This document shows, one piece after another, positions 1,453 through 3,975 of a stretch of 64,000 nt of DNA. The stretch lies in assembly GCF_030384885.1 (NCBI RefSeq), contig NZ_CP128613.1. One strand, 5' to 3'. Positions within the stretch are counted from its first letter, which is position 1, and every line of letters starts with the position of its first letter. A program made the translations under genes and the position numbers. Below the pieces are notes generated by a model. The model was not told the origin of the DNA, made no database searches, and worked only from the letters and a program-made list of their open reading frames with translations. Origin of the DNA: Escherichia coli (lineage in GTDB: Bacteria > Pseudomonadota > Gammaproteobacteria > Enterobacterales > Enterobacteriaceae).

Positions 1453-3975
1453 TTAGTTGACTGTTTTACAAGGTAAAATAATGGCACTTTCGCTGATGTT
1501 ACTTTGGTTAGGGGGAGTAATTTCGCAGGAGTTATCACCCCAGGTTAAACGCAGGGTGCTGTTTTCCTGAATCCCGCTGAGATAAACAAAGCCATCTTCC
1601 GCCACCAGGCCCACATCTTTACCTGTCGCTTTATCCGTGACATTCACACCTAGTGGAGGGAAGCGACCATTTTCCTGGCGAATAATGCCGACGATTTGGT
1701 AACCGGTGGTTGCATTCAGTTTTGCGTAGCCGATGGCACCCTGTGTGAGCGTGGTACGAATAACCGAGTTTTCGACATCAACACCTTCTGGTAGATCGTT
1801 ATTGTTCACCCGTAACATAGAGGTGGTGTAGTTCGATAACGAAGGTACAACAGCAATGCCCAGTCCGTTGGTAACGGTACGGTTAGAGTTGATTTCAACG
1901 CCGGAAATACCATCGGTATCGACCATCATGCGGGCGTTATCGCCATAGCTATAATCGTGAAGCGCGACACCATGACGCGTAGCGGTAAGTGAACCGTACC
2001 AGCCTGCGGTAACAGAATTATACTGATTCGGCTGCACACTGCCGTTAATGTTCAGACGTCCCCACGGTGAATAGTGCTGGTAGCTGCCACGCAACGTTGG
2101 TTCGCCATCGCGAATATTATCGTCCGTTGCTGACGCAGAAATGTTCCAGACATTGTTGCGATCCGACGAGTCATACCAGGAAATCATTTGCGAGGTGTTA
2201 CTGCCATCCGTGCGCTGCATACTGTAGGAGATGTTGCGACTTTGCTGTAACGGCAGAGAGAAAGAGAAGTAATACTGATTTTCTTCGTCATCATCCCAGC
2301 GAATACGACTCACCGCCAGCGATGCGGAAATGCCCTTGAAATCGCCAATATCAAAGTTTTTGCTTACTGATATCGAGTAGTTGGTATTGCTAGGGCTGTC
2401 CCAATAAGTATTGCGTGTAACGTTGAGATAAGAGTTTAATTCCAGCGTTTCAAAATACTGATTCAAGGAAATAACATAACTTTCTTTTTCGTTATCGATT
2501 GACTCGTCACCATTACGTGAGTTGAGGTACTCATTCATTGACACGTAATTTTTATCAGAAAAGCGATAACCCGCGAAGGTAATCTGGCTGCCCGTTGATT
2601 CGAAATGTTTTGCATAGTTAAACCGATAGCTGAAACCACGTAAATTGTCGCTATGTTGTTGCTGTAAAGAGGCATCAGCTCCGGTGACATCGAAAGAAAG
2701 CGAACCAAATTGATTGAGATTAAAACCGATGCCAGTGGTGATCGCCTGGTAATCATCCGCAGTGAACATGCCGCCGCCATAGAGCGACACATTGTTCAGC
2801 CAGCCCCAGGAGGCTTCTGCCGTCCAGAAAAATGGGTTATTAATATCGTTATGTCCGACAGATGTTGGTTTTCCCAGCGACGTTTTGTAGCGTACTTGCC
2901 CTTTACGGGTTAAATAGGGGATGGAAGCGGAACCGACCTGAAAGGTATTGGTACGGCCATCTTCTTCTTCAACAGTGACATCCAGTTGACCCTGGAACGA
3001 CTGGCCCAAATCAGAAATAGTAAAAGGGCCTGGCGCGACAGTGGTTTGATAAAGTACACGACCATTTTGTGCCACAGTTACTTTAGCGTTGGTCTGCGCG
3101 ATGCCAGTAATTTGTGGCGCATAACCCTATAAATCTGGCGGCAACATGCTTTCATCACTTTCCAGCGATGCGCCAGTAAAGTGGAAGGTATCGTAAAGAT
3201 TGGAGCTCAGGTCGTACTGGCCCATAGTGAATTTTGACGACCAGGAGGGGATAGGGCGAAACAGATAAGTTCGCGCAAATTCGCTGTCGTGGTTTACCGA
3301 GCGGCCATCAGCAAAATTCTGATTGTATTGATAATCGCTACGCAAACGCCATGCGCCGAGGTTGAAACCTAAAGTACCGTAGGAACTGATATTTTGGGTG
3401 CTGTCTCCGTGATGTGGGTCGTACTGGCTGGCGTATACGTTATAGTCGAGGATAAATCCGGTGATACCGTCATCCCAAAATTCTGGCGGCGTCCAGTTTG
3501 TTGCCTGGTATTTCAACCATGCCTGGGGAATGCTAAGCGATAATATCATCGTAGATTTATCTAGCCGTGCAGATAATTCCTGTCGTTGACTTAAATCGAG
3601 ACACTCGCTTCCAGCAGTGCTTTGTAATGATTCAATAAAGTCTGTATGCAGGCCAAAATTAATTAAATTTTCTCTAGTTAAGCAGAGTAATGAACCGCTT
3701 TCATTATCTGCTTTTACCCACTCCAGTATTAATGCTTTCGGTAATATATTTTTATTGATTTGCACTCGGACCAGATATTTACCTGGGGTTATGTAGCCTT
3801 TTTTCTCAAAACGAGAGATATCAATATTCTCGCGGTCTTCTGCGTCAATCATATCGACATTGAATTCTACTGCGTGGACTGGCAAAACGAAGAGTAGCGA
3901 ACACACAACGCCAGACAGGGCATTTTTAATTGCATGGGATAATCTGTCCCCGGTAAACGTGTTTTTATTGTTCAT
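1453..3975 (-). pseudogene. Outer-membrane fimbrial usher (FimD/PapC family, YqiG-like) interrupted by one in-frame stop at 3127-3129
   Basis: ORFs 3127..3975 (282 aa, usher N-terminus with signal peptide) and 1453..3075 (540 aa, usher middle and C-terminus) are in the same frame (both ends divisible by 3). The stop appears to read TAG on the coding strand. Combined length about 840 aa, normal for an usher. Confidence 0.8.

Follow-up and report, generated by a model that had tools for sequence, protein, structure and literature searches.

A premature amber codon interrupting the usher gene of a Yqi-type pilus and its probable inheritance within Escherichia cryptic clade I

The 64-kb stretch of DNA analysed in this study (hereafter termed the window) harbors a chaperone-usher pilus operon whose usher gene is interrupted by a single in-frame amber codon. 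In our interpretation, which we consider very probable as a whole, this codon is an inherited nonsense mutation that has converted the CAG triplet encoding Gln283 of a Yqi-type usher into TAG, with the consequence that the pilus would not be made and that the operon undergoes a lineage-specific decay.

The usher gene, now a pseudogene, extends over positions 1453..3975 on the minus strand and comprises 840 codons and a stop, encoding a PapC-like protein of the pi clade that is of the Yqi/ExPEC adhesin I type. The program-made list of open reading frames contains two entries for this region, both on the minus strand, one of 282 residues starting with ATG (3127..3975) and another of 540 residues starting with GTG (1453..3075). 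When 1453..3975 is translated in a single frame, the resulting 841 codons include one internal stop at codon 283 besides the terminal stop, compared to about 40 that would be expected over this length in a random frame of the same composition (about three per 64 codons). The internal stop is located at 3127..3129 on the minus strand, whose sequence in this region reads ...CCA GAT TTA TAG GGT TAT GCG CCA CAA ATT ACT GGC..., with TAG corresponding to positions 3129..3127 of the window. The read-through translation is recognized by the profiles PapC_N (E 1.7e-37), Usher (E 3.7e-165, covering positions 3-549 of 549) and PapC_C (E 4.7e-13), which places the N-terminal domain, the barrel and the C-terminal domain of the read-through or ancestral usher in one polypeptide, whereas the TAG allele ends at position 81 of the Usher profile. 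Both parts of the gene account for complementary stretches of this match, with the translated 5' fragment (3130..3975, minus strand, 282 residues) containing PapC_N at residues 37-181 and positions 3-81 of the Usher profile, and the downstream frame (1453..3075, minus strand, 540 codons) containing positions 102-549 and PapC_C, so that the profile is divided at positions 81 and 102. The stop and the downstream GTG are separated by 17 in-frame codons (3076..3126, minus strand). The first-pass annotation, which had described two collinear frames of one usher of about 840 residues that is split by a lone TAG and otherwise intact, is thus confirmed by translation in one frame, by the division of a single Usher match and by the alignment with a close relative described below.

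A near-perfect match to the usher gene was found in a single complete genome, that of strain 2013C-4282 (NZ_CP027579.1), which is the only one among 5426 complete genomes with an identity of at least 99%, whereas in the remaining 991 of the 992 genomes carrying this type the usher is at most 90.2% identical. In 2013C-4282, the usher is annotated as a single intact coding sequence (WP_001060690.1) and the premature TAG is the single difference in 2523 bases. In this base-by-base comparison, position 847 of the gene is a C in 2013C-4282 and a T in the window, which changes codon 283 from CAG (Gln) to TAG and, as a C-to-T transition of the coding strand, corresponds to G-to-A at position 3129 of the plus strand. 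The same codon is also CAG in the 90%-identical allele of the B2 strain 04-00955. An alignment with intact usher orthologs had been proposed as a way to identify the ancestral codon, and the nearest relative and the B2 allele both assign it as CAG (Gln). With a lone in-frame stop at a position where close relatives contain a sense codon and with the remainder of the usher being collinear, the gene displays the hallmarks of a pseudogene. We have also considered codon 283 as mutational hot spot and rejected this idea upon inspection, since the ancestral surroundings of the base, TTACAGGGT, match no Dcm site (CCWGG) and form no repeat or homopolymer, and there was likewise no sign of phase variation or of a methyl-cytosine hot spot in this context. 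Consensus scans gave no indication that the change had introduced a promoter or terminator inside the gene, as the number of sites did not exceed that obtained with shuffled sequence.

A difference of one base from the closest complete genome could reflect a sequencing or assembly error in a usher gene that is in reality intact, as had been envisaged in the first-pass annotation, and a homopolymer indel found elsewhere between the window and 2013C-4282 implies that errors may be present in one or both assemblies. However, the change at codon 283 is a substitution outside any repeat or homopolymer and as such not a typical error of long-read assemblies. Moreover, exact-sequence look-ups in public collections retrieved the 282-residue product as CAD6073946.1 on 15 contigs and the 540-residue product as CAD6073965.1 on 13 contigs, with the exact intact 840-residue usher being found on about 503 contigs in the same look-up. 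In the retrieved DNA, at least 19 contigs, derived from seven or more independent sequencing runs, carry the split usher with its 282-residue product (SRR34495866, ERR13369355, SRR35948513, SRR34489103, SRR34938331, SRR16894925, SRR35967224 and others), although this count may overstate the number of independent lineages, as some contigs could be repeat samples of one outbreak clone. Since the identical truncated frame recurs on independently assembled contigs from independent runs, and in addition in an NCBI/ENA deposit, we regard sequencing error as ruled out for practical purposes and assign it a very small probability. The TAG-bearing contigs differ from the window by zero or one mismatch over 2.6-8 kb and share its allele at the neighboring variable site 6687. 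In light of these comparisons, TAG is a heritable allele of a small near-clonal sub-lineage that is nested in a much larger population with an intact gene. Two of these contigs contain one additional nonsynonymous change each in the operon, T43M in the adhesin (L005, 7276-8331) and S130I in the chaperone (L006, 6539-7279), which are compatible with relaxed constraint and too few for any conclusion.

The close relationship to 2013C-4282 extends over the entire window, which corresponds to positions 4308853-4372852 of NZ_CP027579.1 except for nine substitutions and a single G7/G6 homopolymer indel. The window is consequently not an identical copy of this genome and, differing from it at few sites, originates from a distinct but very close strain. 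2013C-4282 is stx1-positive and belongs to Escherichia cryptic clade I (PMC10100065). The same assignment holds for the window as judged from its sequence, and the identity of about 97% between its core genes from nudF to parC and those of mainstream E. coli fits with this placement. The complete genome that ranks next in core similarity is R32_14_1F (NZ_CP074749.1), which is clade-I-like and 98.7% identical in core genes.

Several observations concern other loci of the window. Of the substitutions relative to 2013C-4282, those at 6687, 26114 and 58199 correspond to E111D in ygiD, L316V in ftsP and C74W in a protein of LPS biosynthesis. In each case the unusual allele is probably that of 2013C-4282 and not that of the window, because the respective proteins of 2013C-4282 have strain-specific accessions (WP_1069077xx). 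The homopolymer indel is located at 61027-61034 in a frame encompassing 60753..61823 on the plus strand, where the window contains seven G instead of six and the lptF-like open reading frame is intact (356 residues), whereas its counterpart in 2013C-4282 is labelled as frameshifted in RefSeq, either due to an assembly error or to a real polymorphism of homopolymer length in that genome. The surrounding region (approximately 57170-64000, beside yghS/yghT) includes, following the annotations of the sister genome, a 'lipopolysaccharide biosynthesis protein', a hypothetical and a YtfJ-family protein, together with a second LptF/LptG-like permease pair and a serine palmitoyltransferase (spt), a combination that is unusual for E. 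coli. Finally, positions 26632-28992 contain genes for a hypothetical protein of 474 residues and for an ankyrin-repeat protein between ftsP and ygiQ. In R32_14_1F, ftsP is immediately followed by ygiQ, and the segment in the window looks like a small lineage-specific insertion.

The interrupted usher is encoded in an operon together with a PapD-like chaperone and fimbrial subunits, which is arranged on the minus strand in the order pilin, usher, chaperone and adhesin and located between zupT/yqiD and ribB. The pilin, a YgiL-like major subunit of 187 residues (4062..4625, minus strand; Fimbrial E 8.4e-24), and the periplasmic chaperone, with 246 residues as annotated and PapD_N and PapD_C domains (697..1437, minus strand), which starts 15 bases after the usher stop, are both intact and identical to the corresponding proteins of 2013C-4282, whose usher is intact. 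The adhesin, which forms the tip subunit, is represented by the first 233 of its 351 codons (1..700, minus strand), an open frame that is identical to 2013C-4282 over the part present and whose match to the Fimbrial profile (E 1.3e-4) is weak and misses the Pfam cut-off. An initial statement that chaperone, pilin and adhesin are intact consequently holds for the first two, whereas the adhesin is not judgeable from the 233 of 351 codons in the window; on the TAG-bearing related contigs L005-L007 and L009 it is of full length. Upstream of the operon, an AT-rich region (4626..5206, about 32% G+C) presumably contains promoter and regulatory sequences, although promoter-like hexamers were no more frequent in this region than by chance. 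The G+C content amounts to 0.317 over positions 4501-5500, to 0.43-0.48 in the operon and to about 0.51 in the flanking core genes. Such low values are typical of acquired and often silenced pilus operons, and the upstream region with its 32% G+C suggests that the operon of the window may be silenced as well, by H-NS. Adjacent to this region, a 'hypothetical' open reading frame of 49 residues (5207-5356, plus strand) is found at the same position as the 56-residue YqiD frame of K-12 and R32_14_1F and, by its position, appears to be a shortened version of YqiD.

With respect to its type, the operon is, on the basis of site, gene order and protein identity, of the Yqi/ExPEC adhesin I kind. In B2 strains this operon resides at the same site between zupT/yqiD and ribB, with the same order of its four genes, and the genes flanking it in strain 04-00955 are the same as in the window. 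Its proteins share 99.5% (pilin), 95% (usher), 93% (chaperone) and 83% (adhesin) of their residues with those of the window and the usher genes are about 90% identical at the DNA level, which characterizes the operon of the window as a diverged clade I allele that differs from its B2 counterpart by a nonsense codon in the usher. The yqi cluster of B2 strains, which was named ExPEC adhesin I (EA/I), is known from UTI89, APEC O1 and IMT5155. The operon yields short fimbriae upon cloning and has a part in the colonisation of chickens (Antao et al., 2009; PMC2771359). In CFT073 the Yqi usher is c3792 (PMC3559732, Table S2), and in the literature Yqi is grouped with Pap in the pi clade.

The operon of the window also resembles the 'Yqi-like' operon ygiL-yqiGHI of K-12, which belongs to the same pi-clade family, shows the same gene order, is found in the same neighborhood and likewise contains an inactivated usher. 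Since yqiG of K-12 is interrupted by IS2, the stop codon had initially been interpreted as an independent inactivation of the same operon. The IS2 insertion is real, but the operons are not the same. The K-12 operon is inserted beyond ribB, in the interval from ubiK to glgS, whereas that of the window is found between yqiD and ribB, and protein identities between both are only 55% for the usher, 59% for the pilin, 49% for the chaperone and 35% for the adhesin. The usher is closer to Yqi than to Yqi-like proteins (with a pairwise identity of 95% to the B2 usher vs 55% to YqiG of K-12), and neither site nor protein identity (35-59%) agrees with a Yqi-like assignment. As site and type differ, the stop codon does not represent a second event in the operon of K-12 but an event in its sister type, and while yqiG of K-12 was lost by an IS element, the usher of the window was lost by a point mutation. 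Yqi (found in phylogroup B2) and Yqi-like operons (in A, B1, D and E) were previously described as related types that occupy different positions and exclude each other (Wurpel et al., 2013; PMC3559732). This exclusivity fits with the arrangement in the sister genome 2013C-4282, where ubiK directly neighbors glgS and no operon intervenes. In R32_14_1F, the yqiD-ribB and the ubiK-glgS sites are both empty (L013, 5536-8361), and this genome thus contains neither Yqi nor Yqi-like. A fourth state is represented by strain NRZ14408, whose Yqi-type usher carries an insertion of the IS3 family and which is the sole case of an insertion-bearing usher among 40 rows sampled evenly down the ranking of matches. 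Together, four states of the locus were observed, with Yqi present, Yqi-like present, neither of the two or a disrupted operon.

The structural placement of the stop can be derived from PapC, the usher of P pili, which, in the structure 7lhg, is the closest relative of known structure (E 5.5e-173, alignment of residues 36-837). Both proteins align from end to end, including the N-terminal domain, the barrel with its plug, the C-terminal domains and a C-terminal Cys pair (structures 7lhg, 2vqi, 3fip), although P pili are a different pilus type, with another adhesin and at another locus. The usher starts with a hydrophobic leader (...LLFVLPVHA), followed by VEFN at residue 36, which corresponds to residue 1 of mature PapC. 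In this alignment, Gln283 is equivalent to residue 258 of mature PapC in the motif LPPRLRGYAPQITGIA, and the 17 codons following the stop encode GYAPQITGIAQTNAKVT, which almost exactly matches GYAPQITGIAETNARVV of PapC. The plug of PapC, which we take to encompass approximately residues 257-332 and to follow the sixth of the 24 strands of the barrel, would thus place the stop of the usher at the beginning of its own plug. The sequence match to a protein of known structure is sufficient to settle this placement, by which the stop falls where the plug domain of PapC begins and the 17 intervening codons encode the start of the plug. As in the operon of the window, the usher gene also precedes the chaperone gene in the P pilus operon (PMC2771359).

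The position of the stop has a defined consequence for the protein. Translation ends on reaching the plug, and the 282-residue product contains a signal peptide, the N-terminal domain that binds chaperone-subunit complexes and an initial portion of the barrel, corresponding to about 80 of the 549 positions of its profile (approximately 15%). Such a protein would not be expected to form a translocation pore, and as a consequence subunits would be neither polymerised nor exported. We would thus predict from the position of the stop that the strain is unable to make the Yqi pilus.

An assembly of both parts of the protein would offer a way to escape this fate. Both frames are long and open, automated annotation has deposited them as two proteins, and isolated N-terminal domains of ushers can still bind chaperone-subunit complexes, features that would be shared by a split usher composed of two separately expressed polypeptides. 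Still, of all explanations this one appears to us the least credible, its probability being close to nil. The downstream part lacks a signal peptide of its own and is not preceded by a recognisable ribosome-binding site, with none being obvious in the sequence GCTAAAGTAACTGTG ahead of the GTG; it starts 17 codons inside the plug domain, the upstream part covers no more than some 80 of the 549 positions of the barrel profile, and the arrangement is found in no relative. Based on its sequence, we thus regard the downstream frame as merely the untranslated remainder of the usher gene, containing the plug, the rest of the barrel and the C-terminal domains.

Alternatively, the TAG codon might be read through, either by a suppressor tRNA or a near-cognate glutamine tRNA, to provide sufficient usher for a functional pilus, perhaps at reduced or variable levels. 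The ancestral CAG codon lends some appeal to this scenario, as the insertion of Gln at UAG would restore the ancestral protein, and neither the remaining usher gene nor the rest of the operon contains a further disabling mutation. The absence of secondary lesions is, however, also expected for a recent event, and the TAG is not conserved, with CAG being found in close relatives and in B2 and the carriers being near-clonal, which suggests a recent mutation instead of a maintained recoding site. With release factor 1 present, basal read-through is low, and natural isolates seldom carry amber suppressors. A search for tRNA genes within the 64-kb window found none. The near-cognate insertion of Gln, Tyr, Trp, Lys and Glu at UAG was described in E. 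coli, where its frequency was higher in a strain without release factor 1 (PMC4333366). Stop-codon suppression had been raised as a possibility from the outset, and its programmed form finds no support in a TAG that is confined to a near-clonal subset and in a window devoid of tRNA genes. We thus consider it improbable that read-through sustains a functional pilus, although low-level read-through of the amber codon could give some full-length usher. Similarly doubtful is a scenario where the TAG allele was favored by selection because it abolishes the Yqi pilus of an emerging, Shiga-toxin-associated subclone of cryptic clade I, or where it acts as a leaky switch with low and variable piliation, the latter being conceivable because Gln at UAG recreates exactly the wild-type usher.

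Under the preferred assumption of an inherited nonsense mutation, the effect of the stop may extend beyond the usher itself. About 1.67 kb of usher mRNA ahead of the chaperone gene would remain free of ribosomes. Because of this ribosome-free stretch and since the chaperone starts 15 bases after the usher, the expression of chaperone and adhesin would probably be lowered by Rho-dependent polarity and the loss of translational coupling. If the operon were silent in this lineage, the mutation would be without a phenotype.

The described defect has ample precedent in E. coli, where a survey of 36 genomes found 79 of 449 chaperone-usher operons to be disrupted (Wurpel et al., 2013; PMC3559732). 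The operon of the window constitutes another such case, with an allele and a lineage from outside that survey. The TAG-containing usher is an ordinary lineage-specific pseudogene and exemplifies how often accessory pilus operons decay or are lost. Our results have practical implications for its annotation, where CAD6073946.1 and CAD6073965.1 should become one pseudogene instead of two proteins, and for its naming, as the operon is of the Yqi/ExPEC adhesin I type and should not be equated with yqiGHI of K-12. Additionally, the TAG can conveniently serve as a marker SNP to recognize a cryptic clade I sub-lineage related to the stx1-positive 2013C-4282. Beyond annotation, the finding is of little importance and adds one more data point on the loss of accessory pilus operons.
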